This document shows, one piece after another, positions 3,303 to 32,000 of a stretch of DNA of 32,000 nt; within the stretch, counting starts at the first letter, position 1; the number at the start of each line of letters is the position of its first letter. Below the pieces are notes generated by a model. The model was not told the origin of the DNA and searched no databases. It saw only the letters and a program-made list of their open reading frames with translations. Made by a program: the position numbers and the translations under genes. This DNA comes from Nostoc punctiforme PCC 73102. GTDB taxonomy: Bacteria > Cyanobacteriota > Cyanobacteriia > Cyanobacteriales > Nostocaceae. Location: NCBI RefSeq assembly GCF_000020025.1, contig NC_010628.1:1440001-1472000 (forward strand), read 5' to 3'.

Positions 3303-4770
<1,468 letters not shown>

Positions 4771-10967: not shown

Positions 10968-13900
10968 ATGACGCAGAAAGAGTTATTGCAACTGATAGAT
11001 CGTGCCGTGGCTGAGGGTTGGCGAGAGTTAGACTTGTCGGGGCAAGAGTTGACTGAGTTACCTGTGGAAATTGGTAAGTTGCAGCAGCTTGAGTCTTTGA
11101 TTTTGGGAAAGAAGGTTGAAGGTTATGAACGAGTAGGAGACCACTTTCTCGAAAAGGTTTCGGGCAACAATTTAAAAACGCTTCCACTGGAACTATTGGG
11201 TTTGCCTAATTTGCGTAAGTTGGATATTAGTGGCAATCCTTTAGAGAGCATTCCCGATGTGGTAACGCAAATACTGCATTTAGAGGAACTTATCTTAATT
11301 CGAGTAGAGCTAACTGAAATACCTGATGCGATCGCTAATTTAACCAATCTGACGCAGCTTATCCTCAGTTACAACCAAATAACCCAGATTCCAGAGGCGA
11401 TCGCTAAATTAAGCAATCTGACTGTGCTTATCTTCAGTGACAACAAAATAACCCAGATTCCAGAGGCGATCGCTAATTTAACCAATCTGACGCGACTTAA
11501 CCTCAGTTCCAACCAAATAACCCAGATTCCAGAGGTGATCGCTAAATTAACCAATCTGACGCTGCTTTACCTCAGTGGCAATCAAATTACTGAGATACCA
11601 GAGGCGATCGCGCAATTAACCAATCTGACGCTGCTTGACCTCAGTGACAACAAAATAACCGAGATTCCAGAGGCGATCACGCAATCAACCAATCTGACGG
11701 TGCTTGACCTCAGTAGCAACCAAATTACTAAGATACCAGAGGCGATCGCACAATTAACCAATCTGAAGCTGCTTTACCTCAGTGACAACCAAATTACTGA
11801 GATACCAGAGGCGCTCGCTAATTTAACCAATCTGATGCAGCTTCACCTCAGTAGCAACCAAATTACTGAGATACCAGAGGCGCTCGCTAATTTAACCAAT
11901 CTGACGCAGCTTTACCTCAGTGGCAACCAAATTACCGAGATTCCAGAGGCGCTCGCTAATTTACCCAATCTGACGCGGCTTTACCTCTATAGCAACCAAA
12001 TTACTGAGATACCAGAGGCGCTCGCTAATTTAACCAATCTGATCCAACTTGTCCTCTTTTCCAACCAAATTGCCGAGATTCCAGAGACGCTCGCTAATTT
12101 AACCAATCTGATCCAACTTGTCCTCTTTTCCAACCAAATTGCCGAGATTCCAGAGACGCTCGCTAAATTAACCAATCTGACGCGGCTTGACCTCAGATTC
12201 AACCAAATAACCCAGATTCCAAAGGTGATCGCTAATTTAACCAATCTGACAGAACTTCACCTCAGTAGTAACCAAATAACCCAGATTCCAGAGGCGCTCG
12301 CTAATTTAACCAATCTGACACAGCTTTACTTCAGTTCCAACCAAATAACCCAGATTCCAGGGGCGATCGCTAAGTTAACCAATTTGACGCAGCTTGACCT
12401 CAGTGGCAACCAAATTACCGAGATTCCAGAGGCGATTGAAAGTTTGTCGAAATTGGAAAAACTAGATTTACGGGGAAATCCGCTTCCTATTTCACCAGAG
12501 ATTTTAGGATCTTCTGATGATGTTGGTTCAGTTGAAGATATTTTCAATTACTTGCAATTACTCCGTAGCGGTGAAGTGCGTCCACTCAACGAAGCCAAAC
12601 TCTTGCTCATCGGACAAGGCAGCGTCGGCAAAACATCTCTCATCAAGCGACTAATCCGCAATGAATATGATGAGAAACAACCCCAAACCGACGGACTCAA
12701 TGTAGAAACTTGGAACGTGCAGGTCAATAGCAAAGACATCCGCCTGAATGTTTGGGACTTTGGCGGACAGGAAATTTATCATGCCACTCATCAGTTTTTT
12801 CTAACTAAGCGCAGCCTCTATCTCTTAGTCTGTAATTGTCGCACCAGCGAAGAAGAAAACCGCATCGAATATTGGCTGAAACTAATCGAAAGCTTCGGCG
12901 GAGAGTCCCCCGTGATTATCGTTGGCAACAAAAAAGACGAACAACCCTTGGACATAAACCGCAAGGCATTACGCGAAAAATATCCTAACATCCAAGAGAT
13001 TATCGAAACCTCCTGCCAAGATAATATCGGCATTGATGAACTTCGCACCGCCATTTTCCAGCAAGTCGGCAACCTCAAAGAAGTCTACGATCTTCTACCC
13101 CTGACATGGTTTGAGGTTAAACAACAACTCGAATCCATGCCCCAAGACTTCATCAGCTACAACCGCTACATCGGCATCTGCCACGAAAACAAAATTCCTG
13201 AAGAACAAAACCAAGATCAACTCATCGATCTCCTCCATCGGCTTGGCTTAGTTCTCAACTTCCGCGAGCATCCCATCCTCAAAAATACCAACGTCCTCAA
13301 ACCCAACTGGGTGACAGAAGGCATTTACGCGCTCCTGAGCGATGAAACCCTTAAAACTAAAACCAAAGGTATTTTCACCCCTGCCGATCTCACCCGCATC
13401 CTCAATTCAGAGCGCTACCCGACCGAACGTCATGGTTATCTGATCGAACTAATGAAGGAATTCGAGCTTGGCTTTGCACTAGAATGTCAGCCACCACAAT
13501 TTCTGATTGCGGGACTTCTGCCTAAAGACCAACCAGACAAAACAGAACTCCACGGCGAAACCCTGGAATTTCAATACCATTACAAAGTTCTCCCCGAAAG
13601 CATCATCTCCCGCTTCATCGTCAAAACCCACGAAAAAATTCATAACCAAATCTATTGGCGCAGTGGCGTAATGCTGCAATATCAAGAAAACAACGAAATC
13701 TACAACATTGCTCGGATCAAAGCCGATCCCGAAGACAAAAAAATCTTCATCACTATTAGCGAACGCCAAGAAACCCGCCGCTTATTTCTCGGCATCCTCC
13801 GCGATGTCTTCCAAAAAATCCACAAAAGTCTCCCCAATCTCGAAATCACCGAATGGGTTCCCGTCCCCAACCATCCCAAACATCCACCCCTCGACTACCA

Positions 13901-14525
13901 AGAACTCCTCGGACTCGAATCAATGGGTGAAAGTACAGTCATCATCGGCAAACTAAAATTAAAACTCGATTTGCGTCAACTACTTGATGGGTATGAAGAT
14001 ATAAGAACTCGACAAAGACAACAAATAGACAAAGGAATTATTGAACCATTCCCCATTAAGGAAAAAATTATGTCCGAAAGTATCAGAAACCAAATATTTG
14101 TTAGCTACAGTCATCAAGATGCAAAATGGTTAGCAGAACTGCAAAAACAACTAAAACCCTATATTCGTGCAGAAGGTTTGATCGTTTGGGATGACACCAA
14201 AATCAAACCTGGCGCAGAATGGAAAGCCGAGATTGAAAAAGCATTAGCCACGGCTAAGATTGCTATCCTGCTAGTCAGCCCTAACTTTATAGCCTCTGAT
14301 TTCATCGACAGACATGAACTTCCCCCCTTACTCAACGCAGCCGAACAAGAGGGATTAACAATTATCTGGATTCCAATTAGTGCAAGCTCATATAGAAAAA
14401 CCGAGATCGAAAAATACCAAGCTGCTCACCCTTCAAATAAACCCCTCGACAGTCTAAGTAAGGGAGAACGTAACCAAGCTTGGGTGAAAATTTGCGAAGA
14501 AGTCGAAGAGGCAATAAATTCATAA
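10968..14525 (+). CDS. ROCO-family protein with C-terminal TIR domain (LRR x ~20, Roc GTPase, COR, TIR)
   Basis: About 20 units of a 23-aa LRR (LTNLTQLxLSxNQITEIPEAIAx) are followed by a Roc GTPase with P-loop GQGSVGKT (12612-12635), DFGGQE and NKKD. A COR-like region comes next. The TIR domain runs from ~14094 (IFVSYSHQDAKWL...VWDD...ILLVSPNFIASDFIDRHELPPLL) and has a Glu at the position of the TIR catalytic glutamate. Confidence 0.9.
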   Translation: MTQKELLQLIDRAVAEGWRELDLSGQELTELPVEIGKLQQLESLILGKKVEGYERVGDHFLEKVSGNNLKTLPLELLGLPNLRKLDISGNPLESIPDVVTQILHLEELILIRVELTEIPDAIANLTNLTQLILSYNQITQIPEAIAKLSNLTVLIFSDNKITQIPEAIANLTNLTRLNLSSNQITQIPEVIAKLTNLTLLYLSGNQITEIPEAIAQLTNLTLLDLSDNKITEIPEAITQSTNLTVLDLSSNQITKIPEAIAQLTNLKLLYLSDNQITEIPEALANLTNLMQLHLSSNQITEIPEALANLTNLTQLYLSGNQITEIPEALANLPNLTRLYLYSNQITEIPEALANLTNLIQLVLFSNQIAEIPETLANLTNLIQLVLFSNQIAEIPETLAKLTNLTRLDLRFNQITQIPKVIANLTNLTELHLSSNQITQIPEALANLTNLTQLYFSSNQITQIPGAIAKLTNLTQLDLSGNQITEIPEAIESLSKLEKLDLRGNPLPISPEILGSSDDVGSVEDIFNYLQLLRSGEVRPLNEAKLLLIGQGSVGKTSLIKRLIRNEYDEKQPQTDGLNVETWNVQVNSKDIRLNVWDFGGQEIYHATHQFFLTKRSLYLLVCNCRTSEEENRIEYWLKLIESFGGESPVIIVGNKKDEQPLDINRKALREKYPNIQEIIETSCQDNIGIDELRTAIFQQVGNLKEVYDLLPLTWFEVKQQLESMPQDFISYNRYIGICHENKIPEEQNQDQLIDLLHRLGLVLNFREHPILKNTNVLKPNWVTEGIYALLSDETLKTKTKGIFTPADLTRILNSERYPTERHGYLIELMKEFELGFALECQPPQFLIAGLLPKDQPDKTELHGETLEFQYHYKVLPESIISRFIVKTHEKIHNQIYWRSGVMLQYQENNEIYNIARIKADPEDKKIFITISERQETRRLFLGILRDVFQKIHKSLPNLEITEWVPVPNHPKHPPLDYQELLGLESMGESTVIIGKLKLKLDLRQLLDGYEDIRTRQRQQIDKGIIEPFPIKEKIMSESIRNQIFVSYSHQDAKWLAELQKQLKPYIRAEGLIVWDDTKIKPGAEWKAEIEKALATAKIAILLVSPNFIASDFIDRHELPPLLNAAEQEGLTIIWIPISASSYRKTEIEKYQAAHPSNKPLDSLSKGERNQAWVKICEEVEEAINS
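11200..12500 (+). repeat. 69-bp-period coding tandem repeat array (LRR units)
   Basis: About 18 consecutive 69-bp units are highly similar at the DNA level (…aatttaaccaatctgacgcagctt…aaccaaattac[ct]gagat[at]ccagaggcg[ac]tcgct…). Confidence 0.85.
12021..12158 (+). repeat. Perfect 69-bp tandem duplication (2 x 69 bp) inside the LRR array
   Basis: 12021-12089 and 12090-12158 are identical (ctcgctaatttaaccaatctgatccaacttgtcctcttttccaaccaaattgccgagattccagagacg). Together they encode LANLTNLIQLVLFSNQIAEIPET twice. Confidence 0.95.
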
Positions 14526-21382: not shown

Positions 21383-24300
21383 TTACCAAGGATTACCAAC
21401 CATTGTGAATCCAGACCAATAATAAGGATGGGTAAGTAATTGCTCCCCTTCATCAGCACTGTTAGTAGGTAAAGACAAGTTCCCCACTACTCCTAAACCT
21501 TCTAATTGACCATTTTTAACGTAAATCTGCCCTTTAGCCATAGCTACCTGAGCCTGTCTGAGGGCTTCTGCCTTAATTGGAGCTGTCCTCAAGTTTTGAT
21601 AAAATTTCGTCATCAAGGCTGCTGTACCGGCATCATTAACCGACCAAAGACTAGCAACACTAGTTTTCACGCCTGCCAGCACTGCTAAACCTGCAAATCC
21701 AAGCTCTGACTCTTCATCTCCTAATGCTGTTCTACAAGCACTCAGCACGAGCATTTCAACTTCGGGTTCATTAAAGCGCAACTGTCGTAATTGGTTCAAG
21801 CGTAACTTGTCCTCCCACAGTTGAATATAGGAATTACTCAAAGCGCCGGTAGTAAAATCGGCATGGGTTGCCATGTGAATAATCCCAAAAGGTTGTTGGC
21901 GGCGGATAGTTTTGAGATTTTCTAAGGTAGCTTGCTTGTCTAACAATAATTTGCCCTGCCAAAGTTTAGACACCAGTGTTGATAACTCTAGGGGAACTGC
22001 TGGTAAAGGCTCTTGTCCTTGTGTACTTTGAGAAACTCCCATCGCTAAGACTTGAGATTTTTTAATGTCTTTATAAAGAGTGTTAGTCAAGCTGATACTG
22101 GGCATCAAGCCAATGCTATATTTTTCTACTAGAAACCCCTTGCCATCATGAAGTGCTGCCATTGGAGTTGAACGTAACCCCATATCTGGTAAAAAGACCA
22201 AATTATTGATTTCTCTTGCCTGCAAATCTGCCTCTAATGGTGCAATAATCCAGCGATAAAGTTGTTGAGATGGACGCAAATAACCGGTGCGGCGACGGTT
22301 TTGTGGACTAACTATTTGGTCACGAAATTCCTGAGCTACTTGAATAACTTTGGCTTTGGTCGTTTCTGGAATGCGCTTGCGAATAGGGTTGCCTTTTCCA
22401 GTTACTACGACTATTTCTAGTTGGTCGCTATCCTGCTCTGCTAGAGTATTTAATTGTTTAGTAAATTTTTGAGCTTTGCCCAAATTTCTCTCTGGTATTA
22501 TCTCCACAGGAACAAAACTGATGTAAATAAATGCAGGTTTAACACCAGTCGCTTCTTCAATTTTGCGAGCAATTTCTTTGGCATCATCTAGTGTTTTAAT
22601 TCTAGGAGTCGGGATACCTAAATGGTCGGCAAAATCATCTGTGAATTTATCTTCGGGCGTGGGATCGGTATTAATAACGGGGTTGTCAATCTTAGGATTA
22701 TTGGGGTCAGGGACATTCGGTTTACCTGGAGTGCATTGGAATGAGCAAGGGGGAGGATTCGGGGTAAAAGTCGGAGTAGGAATTGTAGTAGGAATTGTAG
22801 TAGGAGTTGGGGTAGGAATGGTGGGAGGAATTTGGCTGACATTGATTCCGACCTGTACAGGTGCAGAAGACGAAACGCGGTCATTTGCACTAATTACAAA
22901 GGCATTTAGTGAACCATTTACATCAGTCGGAGGGGTATACACCAAAGTATCGTCGCTAGATAAGGTAGTGACACCAGGAATGACGGGAAGGCCATTGACA
23001 GTCAGATTTCCTGTATTCACCACATCAACCTGGATGGAGGTGATGTCATTATTAGCATCGCTGACCAGTGCAGCCAAACTAGAGAATGTCAAGGTCACTG
23101 GTTGATTGGTCTGGGTGTTGGGTAGCGATGAGTTTGCCGTTAATACAGGCGGAGTGTTGACGGAAGTAATGGTGATGCCGGTTGGGGTACCAATCGCATC
23201 TCCACCAGTTGGCAATACTGGAAAGTTACCCGAAGCGATAGTTGTACCGCCTCCCACATCAATTGTTCCAGCTGTGCCATTAGCACTCGTCGCATCACCT
23301 ACAATAAATGGCACGTTACCTGGACCACCATCATGTCGAATTGTGACAGTGCCTCCGGCGATGCTAGTGGTTACTCCTGCTCCAGAATCGAAAATTCCGC
23401 CGGTGGCGATGGTAGTACCTACCCCTATTCCTTGAACTAGTCCGTTTGTCAGCACTTGCACATTGCCACCTTGAACAGTGTTTCCATCAACAAAATCGTC
23501 TGCTACGGACTGTGTGTTGATGTTGGTAAAACTAATATTGCTACCAGCAGTATTGGTAGTCTGTAAAGTAACGTTGCCACCTGTAACATTTCCAGTTCCA
23601 TCGACTCCAATGGCGATCGCTGAGGCATTAATGGCATCATTAACGGTGATATTCTCTGTGGCAGTTAAGGTGACTGCGCCAGCCGTACCAGTAAAATCGC
23701 CACCTCCGGTCTTGAATACAGATGAGTTAATCGCCCCAGTGGTAATACTACCTGCTGTAGTTGTTGCAACTATATCGCCACCACGACCTAAGCTACCAGC
23801 ATCACTGGAAAAGGAATTAATTCTATCTGTGAGGATATTGCCTGCCGCAGTCAAAGTCACTGTCCCTGCGGTGTTGACACCATTATTACCAGTATCACTG
23901 GTGTTAATCTGATTAAGAGTAATTCCACCATTGCTACTTACGACTTGAACATTACCTGCTGAATAGCCTTGTCCACTGGCAATAATGTTACCTGTACTAA
24001 TATTGCCGGTCGTCGCAGACAAAGTTATATCCCCGCTTCTAGCGAAATTACGAGTTGTGTTTAGATTTCCTAGTAATAAGCTGGCTCCTGAAATATTAAT
24101 GGCTCCTCCGGTTGTCTGGATTGTGTTGGTAGGGTCAACAAAGTTCACAGAACCGTTTTGTGAGGTTAGGCTGAAGCTACCACCGCCCAAGTTTAAAGTA
24201 GCAACACCAGCGGTAGTCACTCCGGGTGTAGCTCCGGTGATGTCATTGATTGTAATATTGCCTATAGCCTGTAAATTGATATTTACACCCGAAGCTGCGA

Positions 24301-26497
24301 TCGCACCCCAAGAAACGGTGTTAGCCCCAATATCTGGATCGTTAAAGGCAATGTTGCCTGCTGTGGCATCAAAATCACCTGTCCCTGCTGCGGCATCGAT
24401 AATAGTTAATGTGCTGGGGTCTAGTAATAAAGTGCCAAAGCTGCCATTAGGGGCTGAAGCATCTACTAAACCGTTGAAGGTTAAGAAATTTTTGCCTGAT
24501 ACTTCTACAAAACCACCATTCCCGGCATTTGCTCCTCCACGAGCCGAAATTTTACCAAAATATTGAGTTGTGTCGTTACCCCAAACAATTACCTGTCCGC
24601 CATTTCCATTCAAATGGCTATCGGCATTAATGACTGACTTTGAGTCAACATAAGTCCGATCTGCGTTGGGTACAGTCCCCTTACCTTGGTAATCACCGCC
24701 AATTAGCACAGTACCACCGCCATTCGTTCCAGAGGCGTTAATATTGGCATCAACCAGCGCAACTTTTTTACCCAAAGCAGTTACCGTACCGCCTGTTTGA
24801 CTTGATACATCTACTTTGCCTGAAACAATTGTTGTCCCTGGAGTTGTGGGAATTGTGACGTTAGAGCCTGTCAATTTTACAGTCCCATCAGGATTGGCAG
24901 TTAACCCTGTGTTACCAACTGTGAGCAATTCAGGTATTGAGGCGATGGGAATTGTCCAGTTATTGGGTTGGGTGCTACTAGAGGCGAGGGGCTGAATTTC
25001 CAGACTCAGCAGATTTCCTGGCTGACTGAGACGCACCCAATTTTGTCCTGGTACGGATGTGATAGAAATCTGCCCTCCCGGTGCCGAAAGTTGCCCGGTG
25101 TTGACTACAGTACCACCCAATAAATTTAAATTTTGCCCAACACCTACTGCCAAATTTCCAGCATTGGCGATCGCTCCTGGCTGGTTCATACTAAAGGCAA
25201 ATCCGTTGGGGTTTCCAACTAAAGCAGCGTAGTCATTAACACCAATGGCATTGAACCAACTGCTGCCAAAACCAATGCCATTGGCTGTTGTCACTGTGAA
25301 AGCACCAGGCACATTTAAGGTGGCGTTTGATCCAAAAATAAATCCGGCTGGATTCATCAAGAAAAGGTTAGCATTGCCACCTGTTACCTGAATTAAGCCA
25401 TTGATAACCGAGGCATTCCCGCCTGTAATTCGACCAAGGATATTTTGTAGTGCCGGACTAGCTTGGAAATTGGCGATTTGTTCTGGTGAAATCCCAAACT
25501 GTTGAAAGCTGTGGAAGAGGTTAGCACCATCTCCAGAAGTTATACCCCCGGTGATATCTAGTCGATTACCATTGGGTGTAACAATTGTGTTTGTCCCATC
25601 GGCAGCAGGGACAATTTGTTGTGCCTGAGATAATCCCATGCTCGTGACTGTCACTAAAGGCAAAATAGCTAGGACTGAAGCGGCGATTTTGTGTAGTAGA
25701 GGTTTTTTACGCCGCAAGATGAAGCGACCTGCGGGCAATTCCACATCGATTTGTAACTTTTCTGCTAATCCGCGTCGCCAAAGTGCTTGAGCGATCGCCT
25801 TCTGTGACCAGAGTATTTGTTCTGTTCTTCTGGTGACAGACATGCTTTGAGAGTGAAGCCGATAGAGGTAGAGTGGCTCTTGCACTCGGCGCACCTGGGT
25901 TACTTCTGAAAGTCGCAGACATAGGTCATAATCATAGGCACAACCAGAGAACGATTCGTTAAAACCTCCCACTCGGTCGTAAACCGACCGCCGCATCAGG
26001 CGGAAGTGAAACGTCATGAAGTTTACCAAAAGATTGTCTTGGGAGTAAGCAATATTACAGCGATGACCGTAGCCTATGACAATACCCTTTTCATCAATAT
26101 TTAAGTAGTCGGTGTAAACAAATCCCGTTTCTGGGTGGCGATTCAGTACTGTAGCGGTTTGGGCAAGGGCGGTGGGGGCTAGGATATCATCACTGTCTAC
26201 TATACCGATGTAAATGCCACTAGTTTGGGCGATCGCTGCCTTACAAGCCGCAGAAACTCCTTGATGCTGTGCTTCTACTACCCGCACTCGCCCATCTTGT
26301 TGAGCATAAGCGTTTGCGATCGCCACCGATCCGTCTGTGGAGCCATCATCCCAAATTAGTAGCTCAAAGTCTTGCCATGTTTGTGCTAATACGCTAGCGA
26401 TCGCTACCCCAAGGTAAGACTCCCGGTTGTAATTGACGATGACTATGGAGATCAGTGGTGGCATCGAAGTATTCTCAAGTTTTCTACCTGTTATCAC
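21383..26497 (-). CDS. Giant TpsA-type exoprotein read in frame as glycosyltransferase family 2, internal signal peptide, TPS (hemagglutination-activity) domain, beta-helical repeats, Pro/Thr linker and C-terminal CHAT protease domain
   Basis: The GT2 motifs are ISIVIVNYNRESYL and LLIWDDGSTDGS…IVDSDD. They are followed by RRKKPLLHKIAASVLAILPLVTVTSMGLSQAQQ, a typical signal peptide. The TPS-domain block is NRLDITGG…GANLFHSFQQF…NILGRITGGNASVINGLIQV…ANLFLMNPAGFIFG. Long G/N/T-rich beta-helix repeats and the linker IPPTIPTPTPTTIPTTIPTPT come next. The CHAT region has HMATHA (His) and LVLSACRTA (Cys). An in-frame TTG at 25717 would start a conventional signal-peptide-first TpsA. Confidence 0.85.
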   Translation of the reverse strand: MITGRKLENTSMPPLISIVIVNYNRESYLGVAIASVLAQTWQDFELLIWDDGSTDGSVAIANAYAQQDGRVRVVEAQHQGVSAACKAAIAQTSGIYIGIVDSDDILAPTALAQTATVLNRHPETGFVYTDYLNIDEKGIVIGYGHRCNIAYSQDNLLVNFMTFHFRLMRRSVYDRVGGFNESFSGCAYDYDLCLRLSEVTQVRRVQEPLYLYRLHSQSMSVTRRTEQILWSQKAIAQALWRRGLAEKLQIDVELPAGRFILRRKKPLLHKIAASVLAILPLVTVTSMGLSQAQQIVPAADGTNTIVTPNGNRLDITGGITSGDGANLFHSFQQFGISPEQIANFQASPALQNILGRITGGNASVINGLIQVTGGNANLFLMNPAGFIFGSNATLNVPGAFTVTTANGIGFGSSWFNAIGVNDYAALVGNPNGFAFSMNQPGAIANAGNLAVGVGQNLNLLGGTVVNTGQLSAPGGQISITSVPGQNWVRLSQPGNLLSLEIQPLASSSTQPNNWTIPIASIPELLTVGNTGLTANPDGTVKLTGSNVTIPTTPGTTIVSGKVDVSSQTGGTVTALGKKVALVDANINASGTNGGGTVLIGGDYQGKGTVPNADRTYVDSKSVINADSHLNGNGGQVIVWGNDTTQYFGKISARGGANAGNGGFVEVSGKNFLTFNGLVDASAPNGSFGTLLLDPSTLTIIDAAAGTGDFDATAGNIAFNDPDIGANTVSWGAIAASGVNINLQAIGNITINDITGATPGVTTAGVATLNLGGGSFSLTSQNGSVNFVDPTNTIQTTGGAINISGASLLLGNLNTTRNFARSGDITLSATTGNISTGNIIASGQGYSAGNVQVVSSNGGITLNQINTSDTGNNGVNTAGTVTLTAAGNILTDRINSFSSDAGSLGRGGDIVATTTAGSITTGAINSSVFKTGGGDFTGTAGAVTLTATENITVNDAINASAIAIGVDGTGNVTGGNVTLQTTNTAGSNISFTNINTQSVADDFVDGNTVQGGNVQVLTNGLVQGIGVGTTIATGGIFDSGAGVTTSIAGGTVTIRHDGGPGNVPFIVGDATSANGTAGTIDVGGGTTIASGNFPVLPTGGDAIGTPTGITITSVNTPPVLTANSSLPNTQTNQPVTLTFSSLAALVSDANNDITSIQVDVVNTGNLTVNGLPVIPGVTTLSSDDTLVYTPPTDVNGSLNAFVISANDRVSSSAPVQVGINVSQIPPTIPTPTPTTIPTTIPTPTFTPNPPPCSFQCTPGKPNVPDPNNPKIDNPVINTDPTPEDKFTDDFADHLGIPTPRIKTLDDAKEIARKIEEATGVKPAFIYISFVPVEIIPERNLGKAQKFTKQLNTLAEQDSDQLEIVVVTGKGNPIRKRIPETTKAKVIQVAQEFRDQIVSPQNRRRTGYLRPSQQLYRWIIAPLEADLQAREINNLVFLPDMGLRSTPMAALHDGKGFLVEKYSIGLMPSISLTNTLYKDIKKSQVLAMGVSQSTQGQEPLPAVPLELSTLVSKLWQGKLLLDKQATLENLKTIRRQQPFGIIHMATHADFTTGALSNSYIQLWEDKLRLNQLRQLRFNEPEVEMLVLSACRTALGDEESELGFAGLAVLAGVKTSVASLWSVNDAGTAALMTKFYQNLRTAPIKAEALRQAQVAMAKGQIYVKNGQLEGLGVVGNLSLPTNSADEGEQLLTHPYYWSGFTMVGNPW

Positions 26498-26670: not shown

Positions 26671-28506
26671 ATGAGAAAAGAAACAGAAACTGGCATTAAG
26701 CCGAAAACAATTACTCAGAAAAGCATTGTCTGTTTCTCTCATCAGTTAAATACTTGGCAAAGTCTAGCAATTACTAGATGGAATAAGCACAGCTTCAGTT
26801 TTCAGTGTGGCTTGCTAATTCTGCCTGCGGTCTGGATTGTAACTGCAAATGGACTGAGAGCTACGGCGAATATATTGACACCAGACTCAACCCAAAAGAG
26901 TATTCAGTCAGAGTTACAAATAGTACAGGCATCAGAAACTGCCCCGGAAAATAACCCCAATCAAGCCGAACCAAATCCCCAACCAGAAACACCACAACGA
27001 ATTCGGGTTCGCAAAATCCAGGTTGTAGATAGCACAGTTTTTAATGAAAATGACTTTAATCCAGTTGTCAAACCCTTTGAAGAACGGGACTTAACTTTAG
27101 AAGAAATCAGACAAGCCGCAGATGCTATTACCCAGCTTTACTTAAATAAAGGCTATATAAATTCCAGAGCAGTTCCAGACATTCAGCAACCTAGTACCGC
27201 CGATGGTGTTGTGGTAATTCGGGTAATTGAAGGGCGTTTGACAGACATTGAGATCGAAGGGACGCGACGATTAAATCCATCTTATGTTCGTAGTCGCATC
27301 CAATTAGGTGCCGGTACTCCTCTGAATACTAGTAAGCTCGAAGATCAACTGAAACTGTTGCGACTCGATCCCTTATTTACAAATATAGAAGCACGTCTGC
27401 GTCCAACGGGTAAGGTTGGTCAAAGTGTTCTCATTGTCAGAGTTGAAGAGGCCAACCCTTTAACTGGTAGCTTGGGTGTAGATAATTATTCGCCTCCGAG
27501 TATTGGTGCGGAAAGATTGGGTATTGAACTGCGCGATCGCAATTTAACCGGGATGGGAGATGAGTTAGCCGGCTCCTATTACCACACCCTCTCTGGTGGT
27601 TCCGATGCCTTTGATTTTAGCTATCAAATTCCTGTGAACGCGATGAATGGCAAAGTGCAGATTAGAACCGCATTTAATCGCAACGAAATCACTGAGGCAC
27701 CCTTTGATGCTTTTGGCATTCGCGCCAACCAGGATCTTTATGAAATTAATTATCGTCAACCATTGATGCGATCGCCAAGAGAAGAATTTGCCCTATCTTT
27801 GGGATTTACCTATCAAGATGGTCAAACCTTCCTCTTCGAAAACCTGGCAACCCCCTTTGGCATTGGGACTGATGCCAATGGCGTTAGCCGCACCAGTGTA
27901 ATTAAATTTGGTCAAGACTATACTAAGCGCGAACCTCAAGGAGCTTGGTTTTTGCGATCGCAATTTAATTTTGGTATTGACGTATTAGATGCAACTATCA
28001 ACAATGACCCCATACCCGATGGTCGCTTTTTCAGTTGGTTGGGTCAAATACAGCGCGTGCAGCAACTCAGCGCCGATCATCTGTTACTTATCCAAGCAGA
28101 CTTGCAGCTAACACCAGATAGCCTTTTACCCTCCCAGCAATTCGTTATTGGCGGTGGACAGTCTGTAAGGGGATATCGGCAAAATATCCGCTCAGGGGAT
28201 AATGGATTTCGTGTAGCGATCGAAGATCGGTTCACAGTCCAGCGTAATGAATCTGGATTATCCATAATTCAACTTGCGCCATTTCTGGATATGGGATCTG
28301 TATGGAATCAGTCTAATAATCCCAATCGGCTGCCCGATCAAACTTTTTTGGTGGGTGCAGGCTTAGGATTATTATGGAATCAGGCAATGGGAATTGATAA
28401 TCTGTTTTTACGGCTCGATTATGGATTTCCATTTATCGATCTGAGCGATCGCGGCAATAACGCTCAGGATGATGGCTTTTACTTTAGCCTTCGCTATCAA
28501 CCTTAG
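26671..28506 (+). CDS. TpsB outer-membrane transporter (ShlB/FhaC/HecB family, POTRA plus beta-barrel)
   Basis: A POTRA-like region (IRVRKIQVVDSTVFNENDFNPVVKPFEERDLTLEEIRQAADAITQLYLNKGYINSRAV…VIRVIEGRL) is followed by barrel motifs (FVIGGGQSVRGY), and the protein ends in an aromatic-rich strand …FYFSLRYQP. It is divergent from the TpsA gene. The exact start is uncertain. Confidence 0.85.
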   Translation: MRKETETGIKPKTITQKSIVCFSHQLNTWQSLAITRWNKHSFSFQCGLLILPAVWIVTANGLRATANILTPDSTQKSIQSELQIVQASETAPENNPNQAEPNPQPETPQRIRVRKIQVVDSTVFNENDFNPVVKPFEERDLTLEEIRQAADAITQLYLNKGYINSRAVPDIQQPSTADGVVVIRVIEGRLTDIEIEGTRRLNPSYVRSRIQLGAGTPLNTSKLEDQLKLLRLDPLFTNIEARLRPTGKVGQSVLIVRVEEANPLTGSLGVDNYSPPSIGAERLGIELRDRNLTGMGDELAGSYYHTLSGGSDAFDFSYQIPVNAMNGKVQIRTAFNRNEITEAPFDAFGIRANQDLYEINYRQPLMRSPREEFALSLGFTYQDGQTFLFENLATPFGIGTDANGVSRTSVIKFGQDYTKREPQGAWFLRSQFNFGIDVLDATINNDPIPDGRFFSWLGQIQRVQQLSADHLLLIQADLQLTPDSLLPSQQFVIGGGQSVRGYRQNIRSGDNGFRVAIEDRFTVQRNESGLSIIQLAPFLDMGSVWNQSNNPNRLPDQTFLVGAGLGLLWNQAMGIDNLFLRLDYGFPFIDLSDRGNNAQDDGFYFSLRYQP

Positions 28507-28667
28507 AGGATGTTTGAAAAGTATTTCGCTGTGACTTTAGGCACTTTTAGATCCCCTCTAACCCCCCTTAAAAAGGGTGGAACTGGAGTAAAAGTCCCCC
28601 TTCTTAAGGGGGATTTAGGAGGATCTAGAACATTTTGCTACCGAGAAGAGGACTTTTCAAACATCCT
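28507..28667. mobile_element. MITE-like element with 16-17-bp perfect terminal inverted repeats and CTTAG target duplication, inserted at the TpsB stop codon
   Basis: aggatgtttgaaaagt (28507-28522) and acttttcaaacatcct (28652-28667) are perfect inverted repeats. The flanking direct repeat cttag occurs at 28502-28506 and 28668-28672. The left copy contains the TAG stop of the TpsB gene. The interior carries ccccct…aggggg hairpins. Confidence 0.7.
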
Positions 28668-28706
28668 CTTAGGCAATTTCCGTTAATAAATCTACCGCCA
28701 CCGTTG

Positions 28707-28804
28707 GTTTCGACTACTTCGACTACGCTCAGTACAAGTTCGCTCAACCAACTAAGGGATCGAGAGTTGAGCGTTCGCGTAGCGTCTCGAAGAGAAGTCG
28801 AAAC
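28707..28804. repeat. Imperfect long palindromic dispersed repeat (cgcgtagcgtctcg type)
   Basis: gtttcgactacttcgactacgct… on the left is an imperfect mirror of …agcgtctcgaagagaagtcgaaac on the right. It shares the ttcgcgtagcgtc core with 18017-18030. The track ORF 28635-28844 lies across it and is discounted. Confidence 0.45.
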
Positions 28805-29199
28805 TCGTCAACCTGGGTATATTCTTTGTAAGAAATCACCTTAGTACACCAATATTGACGGGCTTTCTTTCTGTAGCTGAAGATTCCCTTTTTTTAGTAC
28901 TGAGTGCTGTTAGGGGATAGCTAAGGTTTAGCCCGTGCTGAGTGCTGAGTTAGGAGTCAGAAGTTAGTATTTTTCCCCTGTGCCCCCTGCCCCCTGCCTC
29001 TTTTTCAATATTTCCTGACCTATGTCAGCATTTTTTGTTTTAAAAACCACTGAAAAAACGCATTTTCAGGTGATTGGCGATTTTTGGTCAATTTATTTTT
29101 GATTATTTACTGAGCTAATCTGCATTTGGGGTGTACTCTCAATATACGGTAACTATCACACTCGACCTTTGAGATAAATTACACCCAGAGGTGAATACC

Positions 29200-29856
29200 A
29201 TGAAAAATTATGCTGATAAGCAGGAATTTATATTAAGTCAAATCACAAACAAGTATTTTCAACGCCGAGATTTCAGTGGATGTGACTTGAGTGGAATTGA
29301 CCTAAAAGGAATTGATTTAAATGGTGTTAATTTCATCGGAGCAGATTTAAGGGGTGCAAATTTGTGTGGCTGTATTCTTACTCGTGCTAATTTAAGTGGT
29401 GCAAATTTGATGCAAGCTAGCTTACATGAAGCTAATCTGTATGAAGCCTCTTTGTGTGAAGCTAATTTGACTAATGCTGATTTAACACGAGCAAATTTGT
29501 GTGGAACTTTCTTATGGCGGGCGAAATTCACAGGTAGTAATCTTTGGGGTGCTTCTTTATGCGATGTAGATTTGAGAGAAGCAGACTTAAGTGAAGCCAA
29601 ATTAATTGAAGCATCATTGATTGAAGCTAACTTAGTTAGAGCAAATCTCACAGGGGCAAAGTTATGTGGAGCAAAATTACTAGAAGCTAATTTAACTGAG
29701 GCTAACTTAACTGGTGCAGATTTGACATGGGCAAATTTAACTAAGGCAAACTTGAGTCAAGCAAACCTTTGGGAGACAAACCTGATTTATGCGAGGTTCC
29801 GGGATACTATCATGCCTGATGGCACAATTAAACAACCTCAGATAGTTATTTATTAA
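29200..29856 (+). CDS. Pentapeptide-repeat protein
   Basis: About 35 consecutive A(D/N)LxG/A pentapeptides are present (ANLSGANLMQASLHEANLYEASLCEANLTNADLTRANL…). ATG 29200 is preferred over GTG 29191 because an extended SD agaggtga lies 8 nt upstream. Confidence 0.9.
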   Translation: MKNYADKQEFILSQITNKYFQRRDFSGCDLSGIDLKGIDLNGVNFIGADLRGANLCGCILTRANLSGANLMQASLHEANLYEASLCEANLTNADLTRANLCGTFLWRAKFTGSNLWGASLCDVDLREADLSEAKLIEASLIEANLVRANLTGAKLCGAKLLEANLTEANLTGADLTWANLTKANLSQANLWETNLIYARFRDTIMPDGTIKQPQIVIY

Positions 29857-30066
29857 TCAGAAGTAGCCCTGTTAAAGTGAGATAATCTTGTGATTTCGTT
29901 TCCATTCTCTATATGGGGGTTTCCTTTTAGCTGTAACCACAATTTTTTTTCAGCTTGGGTCATGATTTCACTTATGTTTATTTAGATATCGTCTTTTTTG
30001 CTTCACATTCCTGTTTTACATAAGAGTGAGTCTTATATAGCAGTTCTAAATCATTCGTAAAAAATT

Positions 30067-30099
30067 AAATCCCCGACTTCTTAAATAAGTCGGGGATTT
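30067..30099 (-). terminator. 13-bp perfect stem hairpin with a T-run on the minus strand (orphan intrinsic terminator)
   Basis: aaatccccgactt (30067-30079) pairs with aagtcggggattt (30087-30099) across a 7-nt loop. Read on the minus strand, the hairpin is followed by aatttttta (complement of 30058-30066). No U-run follows on the plus strand. Confidence 0.45.
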
Positions 30100-30345
30100 A
30101 GACAACGCAAATTTTCACAACTCATTTAGGATTGCTATAGCGTTTCTCGGTTGAGTCCAATACAGACCTAACCCCTAGCCCAAATGCTACAAGGGTTGGG
30201 GAGAGGTTCATCAAACTCACGTTAATTCAGTTAAAACTTGGTCAAAACTTGGGGTGCGGTACTTTATTTGCGTAACACACCCTATTTTCGTTGTATGTTT
30301 CTTAGGTACATCGAACTGCTCTTGTAAACTTATTGAGAATTAACT

Positions 30346-30750
30346 ATGGAACCTATTTCTCTGATTATTGCTGCTTTAGGTGCTGGTGCGATCGCGGCTG
30401 CTAAAGATACCGCCACAACAGCCGTGAAAGATACCTATCAAGGTTTGAAGGCTTTGATTAAAAAGAAGTTTGAAGGCGATGTTCTAGGAAAAGCGATGGT
30501 AGATGCCAAACCCGAAGAAATTAAGCAAGCTGAAGGTTTATTAAAAGACAAAATTACCAAAGCTGGTGCCGATAAAGATGCAGCAATTATTCAAGCGGCT
30601 CAAGAGTTACTTAATCAAGTCAAAGAACAGCCCGGTGGACAGCAGATTATTACCCAAAATATCAGTAATGTCAAATATGCCGCTACTTCTGGTTCTGGTA
30701 ATGCAAGTATTAGTGACATCAATGAACAAGGCACATCGAAAGAGAACTGA
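30346..30750 (+). CDS. Small helical protein with a hydrophobic Gly/Ala-rich N-terminal helix and a C-terminal Q/N/G-rich motif shared with the downstream STAND NTPase (Bell-domain/BASS-like effector candidate)
   Basis: The N-terminus is MEPISLIIAALGAGAIAAAKDTATTAVKDTYQGLKALIKKKF (a membrane-active-looking helix). The middle is Lys/Ala-rich and helical. The C-terminus QQIITQNISNVKYAATSGSGNASISDIN matches residues 9-31 of the next protein. Confidence 0.7.
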   Translation: MEPISLIIAALGAGAIAAAKDTATTAVKDTYQGLKALIKKKFEGDVLGKAMVDAKPEEIKQAEGLLKDKITKAGADKDAAIIQAAQELLNQVKEQPGGQQIITQNISNVKYAATSGSGNASISDINEQGTSKEN

Positions 30751-30781
30751 GACTGTAACTTAATTAATCAGGGTAGATGTT

Positions 30782-32000
30782 ATGTCTAAGCAAGGCGAGA
30801 TTCAACAAAGTGTTACAGAGAGTGAATACGCTGCTACCTCAGCGACTGGTAATGCAACTATCACTGTTACCAATTACTACTATCGAGAAGAAGCAAGATT
30901 AGTCGCTTCTGATTCTACCGACGCTGCTGATGAATCTCTCCCTTGTCCTTATCGCGGTTTGTTTCATTTTGGCCCCAATGATGCGGATATATTCTTTGGG
31001 CGGGAAATTTTTATCGAAGAACTTTATAGTGCAACTAAAACCCGGAATTTTATACCCGTATTGGGTGCATCGGGAAGCGGTAAATCTTCGGTGGTGTTGG
31101 CGGGGTTAGTCCCGAAGTTGCAAACAGCCGGAAATTGGCAGTTTACTCACTTTCGTCCTGGTGCTGATCCTTTTCATGCGTTGGCTGTAGCTTTAGTGCC
31201 ACTTTATACGCCTAATTTAGATGCAACTGACCAAATTGCCCAAGCCCGCAAGTTAGCTGGTTACTTGCAAGATGGCTCTATGCTGATCTCGGACGTTTTT
31301 GCTAAAATTCGGCAAAATCACCCTAATCAACGGGTGCTATTAATTGCTGACCAATTTGAAGAAATTTATACTCTCTGTCACCATCAGGAAACTCGCCATA
31401 AATTTCTTGATTGCTTATTAGCTAGTTTAGAAACTTCCTCTTCTCTATCTGCATCCGCTACGGTGTGGGTAACGACAATGCGGGCAGATTTTTTGGGAAA
31501 TGCTCTCTCCTATCGTCCCTTTGCGGATATCTTGCAAAATGCTGATGTGAAATTAGGGCCGATGAATCGGGAGGAATTAACACAAGTTATTGAAAAACCT
31601 GCCGAAAAATTAGGGGTGACATTTGCAAGCGGACTGGTAGAACGCATTTTAGAGGATGTGGAAAACCAGCCAGGAAATTTACCTCTGCTAGAGTTTGCTT
31701 TAACAGAGTTGTGGAATAAGCGCACGGGTAAACAATTAACTCACAAAATCTATGAAGAAATTGGTCAAGTAGAAGGTGCGTTAGCTCGTCATGCTGATGA
31801 AAAATATGGCAACTTGACAGAGGAGGAAAAAGAAAAAGTCCGGCGGATTTTTATTCAATTGGTGCGTCCGGGTGAGGGAACAGAAGATACTCGACGAGTG
31901 GCGATGAAGGCGGAATTGGGGGAGCAAAGCTGGGATTTGGTCAAACAATTAGCGGATGCTCGGTTGGTGGTGACAAGTCGCAATGCTACCAGTCAAGAAA
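30782..32000 (+). CDS. STAND (NACHT/NB-ARC-like) P-loop NTPase, N-terminal ~406 aa; continues beyond the window
   Basis: The frame is open from ATG 30782 to the window end and is absent from the track only because it has no stop. It contains PYRGLFHFGPNDADIFFGRE, the motif preceding the P-loop in cyanobacterial STAND/WD40 proteins. Walker A is GASGSGKSS and Walker B is LLIADQFEE. The winged-helix-like region is LPLLEFALTELW. The N-terminal QSVTESEYAATSATGNATITVTNYYY matches the upstream gene's C-terminus. Confidence 0.85.
   Translation, partial: MSKQGEIQQSVTESEYAATSATGNATITVTNYYYREEARLVASDSTDAADESLPCPYRGLFHFGPNDADIFFGREIFIEELYSATKTRNFIPVLGASGSGKSSVVLAGLVPKLQTAGNWQFTHFRPGADPFHALAVALVPLYTPNLDATDQIAQARKLAGYLQDGSMLISDVFAKIRQNHPNQRVLLIADQFEEIYTLCHHQETRHKFLDCLLASLETSSSLSASATVWVTTMRADFLGNALSYRPFADILQNADVKLGPMNREELTQVIEKPAEKLGVTFASGLVERILEDVENQPGNLPLLEFALTELWNKRTGKQLTHKIYEEIGQVEGALARHADEKYGNLTEEEKEKVRRIFIQLVRPGEGTEDTRRVAMKAELGEQSWDLVKQLADARLVVTSRNATSQE

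Follow-up and report, generated by a model that had tools for sequence, protein, structure and literature searches.

A Bell-domain gene and an nSTAND1 receptor gene of Nostoc punctiforme PCC 73102 share a conserved terminal motif and probably form an amyloid signaling pair

Do two adjacent genes that share a short terminal motif encode an effector and its receptor, coupled through that motif by amyloid signaling? The question is raised by the right-hand end of a 32,000-nt stretch of the cyanobacterium Nostoc punctiforme PCC 73102 (NCBI RefSeq assembly GCF_000020025.1, contig NC_010628.1, positions 1,440,001 to 1,472,000 of the forward strand; the whole stretch is referred to as the window), in which a gene for a 134-amino acid (aa) protein and a gene for a signal transduction ATPase with numerous domains (STAND) lie collinear on the same strand, 31 bp apart. 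An earlier reading of the DNA letters and their open reading frames (ORFs), here called the sequence-only reading, had proposed that the two are a Bell-domain effector and a nucleotide-binding oligomerization domain (NOD)-like receptor (NLR) that communicate through a bacterial amyloid signaling sequence (BASS). On the basis of Bell homology, predicted fold, the STAND partner, WD40 repeats, collinearity, and co-conservation of the motif, we consider it very probable that the genes are a pair of this Bell/BASS-NLR type.

The two proteins and their shared motif

Both ORFs exist as first described: the small one ends 31 bp before the ATG (30782) of the larger one, which runs off the end of the window. 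The 134-aa protein is identical to ACC79945.1 / WP_012407966.1 of N. punctiforme PCC 73102. By BLASTP it is 46% identical over residues 1–95 (E 2e-22) to BAZ82063.1 of Sphaerospermopsis kisseleviana (locus L062), which appears on the Bell side of a motif pair in Table S2 of Dyrka et al. 2020 (bioRxiv 10.1101/2020.01.06.895854), and proteins 97% and 100% identical to it carry a precomputed annotation for the Pfam family PF20701 (HetE-N). Bell proteins have been described as 120–140 aa long, starting in a hydrophobic helix and acidic at residue 2 or 3 (Dyrka et al. 2020); the present protein, which starts MEPISLIIAALGAGAIAAA, agrees in length, in its hydrophobic first helix, and in the Glu that is its second residue, and is predicted to form a helical bundle. 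It opens with MEPIS, the residues from which Ibarlosa et al. 2024 (bioRxiv 10.1101/2024.11.07.622273) took their name for a motif conserved at the N-termini of Bell, Hell, Babybell, and several antiphage NLRs. An AlphaFold2 (AF2) model built with 76 homologs has helices over residues 3–106, with a mean predicted local distance difference test (pLDDT) score of about 82–95 per 10-residue block, followed by a tail (residues 108–134) that lacks structure (pLDDT below 50). The hydrophobic, small-residue-rich N-terminal helix noted from the letters is borne out: AF2 places helix 1 at residues 3–19 (pLDDT about 89), its mean Kyte-Doolittle value is 2.06 over 17 residues, it contains the patch AALGAGA, and G14, A10, and L11 are invariant or nearly so among the 76 homologs. 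The small protein is accordingly classed as a Bell-domain protein, with a role in membrane targeting and cell death that is probable by analogy with other members.

The shared motif (type A, or YAATS after its core) consists of two 23-residue segments, one in the Bell tail and one at the head of the receptor (Table 1), that align without gaps at 11 of 23 identical positions. BLASTP extends the match to 13/28 identities, again ungapped, between residues 99–126 of the Bell protein (from nt 30640) and residues 4–31 of the receptor (from nt 30791), with an E value of 4e-5 under composition-based statistics. The Smith-Waterman score of tail against head was 61, a value that no shuffle attained, whether the whole small protein was shuffled (2000 times; mean 33, maximum 57) or the tail only (5000 times; mean 23, maximum 51). 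The ungapped alignment reported in the sequence-only reading is therefore real, and some details of its description need adjusting. The motif does lie in the C-terminal tail, as stated, but is followed by eight further residues, EQGTSKEN, and so does not form the extreme C-terminus; and the alternation of polar and hydrophobic residues, ascribed to the motif as a whole, is clear only in its second half (A-S/T-I-S/T-x-I/T-N) and not in its first. Neither 23-mer has any P or L, and K occurs once in the two together; S, T, N, A, and I are abundant, and a G-x-G-N lies at the center.

The motif is strongly conserved on both sides. Among 59 type-A homologs, which include proteins from Nostoc, Microcystis, Dolichospermum, Trichocoleus, and Oscillatoria, the Bell-side motif has a mean pairwise identity of 87%, versus 60% for folded residues 21–95; it is the most conserved part of the protein, despite its disorder in the AF2 model, and is under stronger constraint than the Bell fold. 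The receptor-side motif is 74% conserved, versus 47–55% for its flanks, and its last residues (..ITVTN) merge into the segment NYYYREE. At the DNA level the two motif-coding segments are 60% identical and share the codon at 7 of 13 identical residues, so that the motif pair is no fresh duplication. Because the codons differ at the other 6 of the 13 residues, we reject recent duplication or gene conversion as the source of the resemblance; constraint on the motif appears to act at the protein level. Within type A there is too little variation for an analysis of residue-by-residue covariation, the sole hint coming from Microcystis, in which both partners have S-G-T-G.

Nor did the motif behave as a common low-complexity segment, a concern raised in the sequence-only reading. 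A six-frame search with a regular expression for the extended motif, over 747 kb made up of the window and 82 cyanobacterial loci, found only the two expected sites per type-A locus, which in the window are the Bell tail and the NLR head. When a degenerate DNA pattern was searched in metagenomes (241 million records), 37 loci were found, consisting of Bell tails, nSTAND1 heads, and about ten chance matches of the exact 10-residue core, which lie in unrelated frames and are without flanking similarity. The type-A motif was also sought on other effector architectures, and none was found among the viral contigs or metagenome records scanned. Eight of the metagenome contigs (L089, L090, L097, L102, L103, L107, L109, and L114) represent a G+C-rich lineage in which type-A receptor heads (MSEPQEGIRQEISEAQYAATSASGNATIQITNYYYREGPESAAQPAAGPAG...) are followed by a proline/alanine-rich linker.

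The downstream protein matches the Pfam model for nSTAND1 (PF20703; for the clade, Kaur et al. 2021) over residues 56–401 with an E value of 2.7e-105, and its NACHT score of 17.5 bits is below the cut-off of 26.7. The layout recognized from the letters, a PYRGL...FFGRE element followed by Walker A and Walker B motifs, is present (PYRGLFHFGPNDADIFFGRE, GASGSGKS, and VLLIADQFEE), and P56, Y57, L60, F61, F71, F72, G73, and R74 are invariant in the first of these. AF2 predicts that the motif-bearing extension (residues 1–48) is disordered, with pLDDT below 50, and that a P-loop alpha/beta domain begins at about residue 75; a Foldseek search with the receptor model returned matches to Cdc6/Orc1 and plant NRC NB-ARC structures. 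Between motif and NTPase, NY[YF]YREE or a close variant of it is found on nearly all nSTAND1 N-termini examined, regardless of the motif type that precedes it, and at 88% its conservation exceeds that of the receptor motif (74%). The segment may serve as a beta-core extension, a spacer, or a recombination anchor.

The sensor repeats, which had been predicted to lie past the window, were identified as WD40 repeats in a Nostoc locus whose Bell protein is 97% identical (L001). The partner there is a 1253-aa protein composed of nSTAND1, a hydrophobic segment, and about 15 WD40 repeats (Pfam), and its WD40 array (residues about 600–1224) is built from a 126-bp unit, present in 14.7 copies that match at 95% of nucleotides. 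Highly internally conserved WD40 repeats are also a feature of fungal HET-E/NWD2-type NLRs. The receptor at another locus, L011, is 1211 aa long; the WD40 scan covered L001. The hydrophobic segment of the L001 receptor (L001:10437-14198, residues about 503–527, RLTFYGLAGGLVLALGLSGLAGIGW; Kyte-Doolittle 1.75 over 19 residues) is preceded by a basic stretch and lies between the NTPase and the WD40 array, and this receptor may be membrane-anchored.

Matched motif types and the exchange of a two-motif cassette

A profile of the 76 Bell homologs identified at least 3398 representative clusters at 50% identity (E <= 1e-3), nearly all of 120–140 aa, with a common N-terminus and size and widely varied tails. 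If each Bell tail signals to the protein encoded next to it, tail and head should match within pairs. Pairs were defined as a Bell gene and the next gene, taken from the window and from loci found with the Bell-domain profile, and 66 were usable. The mean tail-versus-head score was 66.4 for cognate and 30.8 for non-cognate combinations, with 0 of 10,000 permutations reaching the observed mean; co-conservation of the motif in homologous pairs, on which the sequence-only reading had made its proposal depend, is thereby found. Type-A tails score 60 against type-A heads and a mean of 21.5 (maximum 36) against other heads. Besides type A (YAATS), the tail types include type B (...GGNVNFAPVQ), BASS3 resembling the receptor-interacting protein homotypic interaction motif (RHIM) (GEVKGAQVGDxNxQxNxF), GDVFGVAGTNTGTVNI, GGDIKGIVGDISGGNINQ, and VQISGGTVQGLTQQNTGT, among others, and every tail type is mirrored on its own NLR. 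This holds for sister loci with Bell domains 55–75% identical, which carry BASS3/RHIM-like and other motifs, each matched on its own NLR. A single Nostoc metagenome-assembled genome has three pairs (L003, L043, and L082), each of a different motif type.

Comparison with type-B loci then delimits the exchanged unit. Between the window and two such loci (L014 and L013), DNA identity is 77–97% over the Bell globular region (30346-30645) and about 83–100% in most 30-nt windows from 30886 on, whereas inside 30646-30885 it drops to about 0.43–0.60, the level of the unrelated upstream flank. This divergent block comprises the tail, the spacer, and the head, so that the two motifs move together in a unit of ~240 bp. 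L003 shows the reverse mosaic: there, an identical Bell gene and cassette precede an NTPase that is only about 75% identical. Joint swapping of the cassette suggests orthogonal wiring. Taken as four independent lines, conservation, protein-level constraint, partner matching, and cassette structure indicate that the shared motif is functional. A separate mosaic concerns the Bell globular domain: the window and L011 are about 97–100% identical in DNA over 2 kb, except for ~90 bp (30466-30555) at about 50–58%, which suggests a small gene-conversion or mosaic patch.

In Nostoc sp. CMAA1605, a single 1284-aa ORF (L036:5001-8855) comprises a Bell domain, a hybrid BASS3 motif, NY[YF]YKEE, nSTAND1, and WD40 repeats. 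The hybrid motif joins the Bell-side FQGEVKDAQVG to the NLR-side NNNIIYNYFYYKEE, and the ORF looks like a deletion by recombination between two motif copies. In this "Rosetta-stone" fusion the Bell domain occupies the receptor's effector position, which points to a functional link between Bell and receptor. Other fusions were also observed. In three Microcystis loci (L017, L023, and L027) the Bell domain is fused in frame to the post-NTPase region, the type-A motif being cut after QNIS and joined to ...RVFRAWQERLR..., and in Nostoc sp. CHAB 5715 (L035) a BASS3 tail is joined to the transmembrane-WD40 part. All four have lost the whole NTPase domain and may be decayed or re-wired variants. In Microcoleus sp. 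S13_C5 (L018:4320-5363), a partial CHAT domain (Pfam E 2.1e-8) reads into a Met-less Bell domain (..SLVDAISLIIAALGAG..) with a type-A tail; this frame could be a protease-Bell fusion or an upstream ORF reading through.

Homologs of the 134-aa protein are present on conjugative cyanobacterial plasmids. One of them, on a conjugative plasmid of Tolypothrix sp. PCC 7601 (L120; NZ_CP064884.1, 55354-55737), is a Bell homolog with 74% identity over residues 1–125. The gene downstream of it is cut to 103 aa by an ISH3 transposase, and a divergent neighboring gene set for an AAA ATPase and a von Willebrand factor type A (vWA) protein resembles a MoxR-vWA conflict system.

Proposed mechanism and rival explanations

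We think it likely that the pair is a regulated-cell-death or immune module that operates by amyloid templating, by analogy with tested relatives (BASS1, BASS3, Bab/Agp-BASS11, and HET-S/NWD2). In such a module, detection of a trigger by the WD40 sensor would cause the NTPase to oligomerize, and the N-terminal motifs clustered in this way would form a cross-beta nucleus, possibly with a strand Q-x-I/V-S/T-x-x-x-Y-A-A-T-S, a turn G/A-S/T-G-N, and a strand A-S/T-I-S/T-x-I/T-N. The nucleus would template the same fold onto the Bell tail, and this conversion would free helix 1 from the bundle to enter the membrane, with the result that the cell is killed or arrested. Different motif types on otherwise near-identical pairs would provide private wiring from each receptor to its own effector. 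For BASS1 and BASS3, fibrils and prions have been obtained, and NLR-side motifs convert Bell-side motifs; one of the tested BASS3 pairs is from N. punctiforme (Dyrka et al. 2020). Bab/Agp is an abortive-infection system with amyloid-dependent activation in vivo, membrane relocalization, membrane damage, and cell death, in which Bab moves to the cell periphery and both beta-breaker mutations and the helix-1 substitution G11K abolish function (Ibarlosa et al. 2024).

A number of results weigh against this interpretation. Fibril and cross-seeding evidence comes from BASS1, BASS3, and BASS11 only, and AF2 gave no confident structure for either copy of the type-A motif. BASS are enriched in N, Q, G, V, and I and depleted in P, L, and K (Dyrka et al. 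2020), and compared with the average BASS the YAATS motif has more S, T, and A and less Q, G, and V. It has no match among BASS1-10 or the 44 published unassigned pairs in a string search of Table S2 for AATS, YAATS, SGNAS, and GNAS, and matches to GNAT and TGNA in that table are unrelated sequences; the absence from the published table is at the same time consistent with the suggestion in the sequence-only reading that the motif could be an unclassified variant. A search for solved structures resembling the AF2 model of the Bell protein found none. The local Pfam hmmscan found no family for the 134-aa protein at E <= 1, and PF20701 was likewise missed at this threshold for the 97% identical homolog and for a published Bell protein, which may reflect a model-version difference or an absent model; the HetE-N label therefore stands on the precomputed annotation. 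The NCBIfam library scan of the protein also returned no match. PADLOC had no match for either of the window's two proteins, and for the full-length receptor homolog at L001 it returned only HEAT-ARM_XIII, over part of the WD40 region. As for a connection with phages, no homologs of the 134-aa protein were found in phage records, and the degenerate DNA pattern for the motif core had 0 exact matches in viral contigs.

Two of these points, the lack of beta structure predicted by AF2 and the S/T/A-rich composition atypical of the average BASS, also speak for a rival reading, in which the motif is a stoichiometric docking element. Through beta-strand augmentation or a small hetero-dimeric beta-zipper it would hold the Bell protein on its own NLR and act by induced proximity, with no self-propagating templating. 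Co-variation and cassette exchange are compatible with docking, in that they show a specific partnership only and not its physical form, and homotypic adaptor coupling, like that of effector-associated domains (Kaur et al.), is the general logic of such systems. Yet the element, disordered as a monomer, has only 23–28 residues, many fewer than a globular adaptor would need; its place is taken by RHIM-like BASS3 in sister loci that share the Bell and nSTAND1 scaffolds, and the N. punctiforme BASS3 forms fibrils and prions; and in Bab/Agp one beta-breaker mutation is enough to eliminate foci as well as defense (Ibarlosa et al. 2024). We regard docking as unlikely, if still a serious competitor to amyloid templating.

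The position of helix 1 bears on another account, in which the small protein would play an EACC1-like part as membrane anchor, sensor, or regulator of the NTPase, with its helix residing permanently in the membrane and its motif holding the NLR there or keeping it inactive. AF2 predicts helix 1 to be part of a compact, soluble-looking bundle (pLDDT about 90), and in the solved Babybell structure helix 1 is cupped by the other helices (Ibarlosa et al. 2024), neither of which suits a permanently inserted helix, even though the patch AALGAGA would and the L001 NLR has a hydrophobic segment of its own. Kaur et al. 2020 (PMC7159879) did read a comparable 5' gene, EACC1, as a membrane-associated sensor in systems where nSTAND1 occurs; the hmmscan of the small protein against Pfam, however, gave no EACC1 match at E <= 1. 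In the L036 fusion and in Avast2 and bNACHT proteins, moreover, this N-terminal module stands where the effector is placed, and its mutation abolishes defense (Ibarlosa et al. 2024). A role as anchor, sensor, or regulator is thus improbable, and markedly more so than docking. Lastly, the resemblance between tail and head might be due to chance, low complexity, or the residue of a recent duplication, and have no function. Both segments are rich in S, T, A, G, and N, and the bare 10-residue core recurs about ten times in unrelated frames of the metagenome records, but the composition-corrected BLASTP value and the shuffles, the confinement of the extended motif to Bell tails and NLR heads, its retention from Nostoc to Microcystis, Trichocoleus, and Oscillatoria at a level above that of the folded domain, and the differing codons leave this explanation with next to no probability; chance or leftover duplication is excluded.

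Returning to amyloid templating, we put forward a more specific proposal, tentatively and with slightly more doubt than confidence: YAATS may represent one more BASS family, so far uncatalogued, that serves nSTAND1-WD40 receptors specifically and whose portable cassette of ~240 bp would be moved by recombination between otherwise near-identical pairs, giving orthogonal amyloid "wires" through which paralogous death switches could coexist without cross-talk in one filamentous cyanobacterium. Fungi and mammals are known to use amyloid templating between an immune receptor and a pore-forming executioner, as are, since 2020–2024, bacteria, in which only three motif families have been tested. The locus described here adds the nSTAND1 receptor clade and an unlisted motif to the catalogue and is found in a genetically tractable model cyanobacterium. 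As near-identical scaffolds carry different, jointly swapped cassettes, the specificity of amyloid signaling is directly testable by cassette exchange. The locus would also help to settle whether these abundant modules serve phage defense, allorecognition, or developmental cell death in multicellular cyanobacteria.

Features of the locus and comparison with known systems

Table 1. Features of the Bell/nSTAND1 locus, in window coordinates
Feature	Position	Strand	Details
G+C-rich palindromic hairpin, terminator-like	30066-30100	.	14-pair stem, perfect; 6 G-C pairs; T-run on - strand
Bell-domain (Pfam HetE-N) effector gene	30346-30750	+	134-aa ORF
Globular helical bundle of Bell domain	30346-30663	+	residues 1-106; seven helices predicted by AF2
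N-terminal hydrophobic helix 1, "MEPIS" putative pore-lining helix	30352-30402	+	residues 3-19, PISLIIAALGAGAIAAA, after Met-Glu
Exchangeable two-motif cassette (Bell tail, spacer, NLR head)	30646-30885	+	DNA identity drop versus type-B loci
Effector-side signaling motif, type A	30655-30723	+	QNISNVKYAATSGSGNASISDIN, Bell residues 104-126
Intergenic spacer	30751-30781	+	31 bp
nSTAND1-class STAND NTPase (NLR-like receptor), 5' part	30782-32000	+	406 codons seen; gene extends past window
Receptor-side signaling motif, type A	30806-30874	+	QSVTESEYAATSATGNATITVTN, NLR residues 9-31
NYYYREE, near-constant aromatic segment of nSTAND1 N-termini	30872-30892	+	directly after whichever motif type
Conserved PYRGLFHFGPNDADIFFGRE element, nSTAND1 domain start	30947-31006	+	residues 56-75
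Walker A / P-loop GASGSGKS	31064-31087	+	residues 95-102; invariant G95-S103
Walker B VLLIADQFEE	31334-31363	+	residues 185-194; invariant I188, A189, D190, Q191, F192, E193, E194

The spacer between the two genes has the same length of 31 bp in Nostocales type-A loci and is 22 bp in Microcystis loci. The hairpin listed in Table 1 (AAATCCCCGACTT...AAGTCGGGGATTT) has A/T runs on both sides and is located between an upstream pentapeptide-repeat gene and the Bell/NTPase pair; it is likely a bidirectional terminator between the pentapeptide-repeat and Bell genes and likely the upstream boundary of the pair's transcription unit. A sigma-70 consensus scan found no promoter on the + strand upstream of the pair, and no Rfam RNA families were found in 28400-32000. 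No recognized defense island was identified in the window. Elsewhere in the window, a gene at 10968-14525 (+) encodes an immune-like, 1185-aa ROCO-type protein with leucine-rich repeats (LRR), a Roc GTPase, COR-A/COR-B, and a C-terminal TIR domain. A gene at 21383-26497 (-) encodes a 1704-aa protein with a family-2 glycosyltransferase, a two-partner secretion (TPS) domain, and a C-terminal, caspase-like CHAT domain, and its divergent neighbor at 26671-28506 (+) encodes a ShlB/FhaC-type POTRA transporter, the two making up an unusual two-partner-secretion pair. These LRR-Roc-COR-TIR and glycosyltransferase-TPS-CHAT/ShlB-type transporter genes are conflict-system-like. The window also contains an ORF with a DUF772 transposase domain at its left edge (77-679, +) and a gene for a CoxE-like vWA protein (3337-4770, +).

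Among known systems, the window's pair most resembles the Bell/BASS-NLR pairs of Dyrka et al. 2020, with which it shares a protein of ~130 aa made up of a hydrophobic helix at the N-terminus, a helical Bell domain, and a motif of ~25 residues in the C-terminal tail, the recurrence of the motif at the N-terminus of an adjacent, collinear, NLR-like gene after a short gap, and a filamentous cyanobacterial host. It differs in that the published screen covered NACHT/NB-ARC partners only, whereas the partner here is nSTAND1. Neither ACC79945 nor any other PCC 73102 entry is listed in Table S2 of that study, and GEVKG, from the BASS3-bearing sister loci, is not in that table. The nearest look-alikes of the YAATS motif are BASS9 and BASS10 (NIEMNVTASGDSKVTQ; IAMNATAYDNSTVK), compared by pattern alone, with which only a loose x-A-T-A/S-x-x-D/N-x-S/T-x-V is in common; a distant relation to BASS9 or BASS10 is possible. 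The features of BASS11 given in the text of its description (I87-G88-S89-V90 and D99-N100) do not fit the YAATS motif, and a literature search for the literal motif returned only unrelated papers and none that prints it. The BASS3/RHIM-like sister loci (e.g., L032, L055, and L074) have the same Bell scaffold (about 55–65% identical), nSTAND1-WD40, and NY[YF]YREE junction as the window's pair and differ in the cassette only, their motif being G-E-V-K-G-A-Q-V-G-D-x-N and not YAATS.

The Bab/Agp-BASS11 system of Escherichia coli ECOR25 (Ibarlosa et al. 2024) likewise has an adjacent effector and sensor with a common terminal motif and a "MEPIS" helix, and amyloid-dependent activation is known there in vivo. 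Bab, however, is a shorter "Babybell" with a domain of about 80 aa and carries a different motif, and the system sits in a prophage defense hotspot, whereas no phage link was found for the window's pair. The fungal HET-S/NWD2 system (a HeLo domain, a HET-s-related amyloid motif, and a NACHT-WD40 NLR) is alike in logic, in gene arrangement, in its WD40 sensor of highly similar repeats, and in its effector, a helical domain that targets membranes and starts in a hydrophobic helix; it has two motif pseudo-repeats, versus one in the type-A tail, and another NOD class, and neither sequence nor fold homology between the two systems was detected by Pfam scan or structure search. The two-gene EACC1 system (Kaur et al. 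2020, PMC7159879) resembles the pair in its small 5'-encoded protein, which has a conserved hydrophobic helix with a small-residue patch, in its large multidomain 3' gene, which sometimes includes nSTAND1, and in its enrichment in multicellular bacteria. Its partners, however, typically start with a caspase, whereas the window's partner starts with the motif and continues with nSTAND1, and its authors proposed proteolytic, not amyloid, coupling. Dyrka et al. 2020 and Ibarlosa et al. 2024 have already described systems of this kind, so the pair does not represent a new category. The YAATS motif itself does not seem to be catalogued, and the sub-family to which the pair belongs, BASS3-bearing members included, is by its predicted domains wired to nSTAND1, a receptor class outside the published screen.

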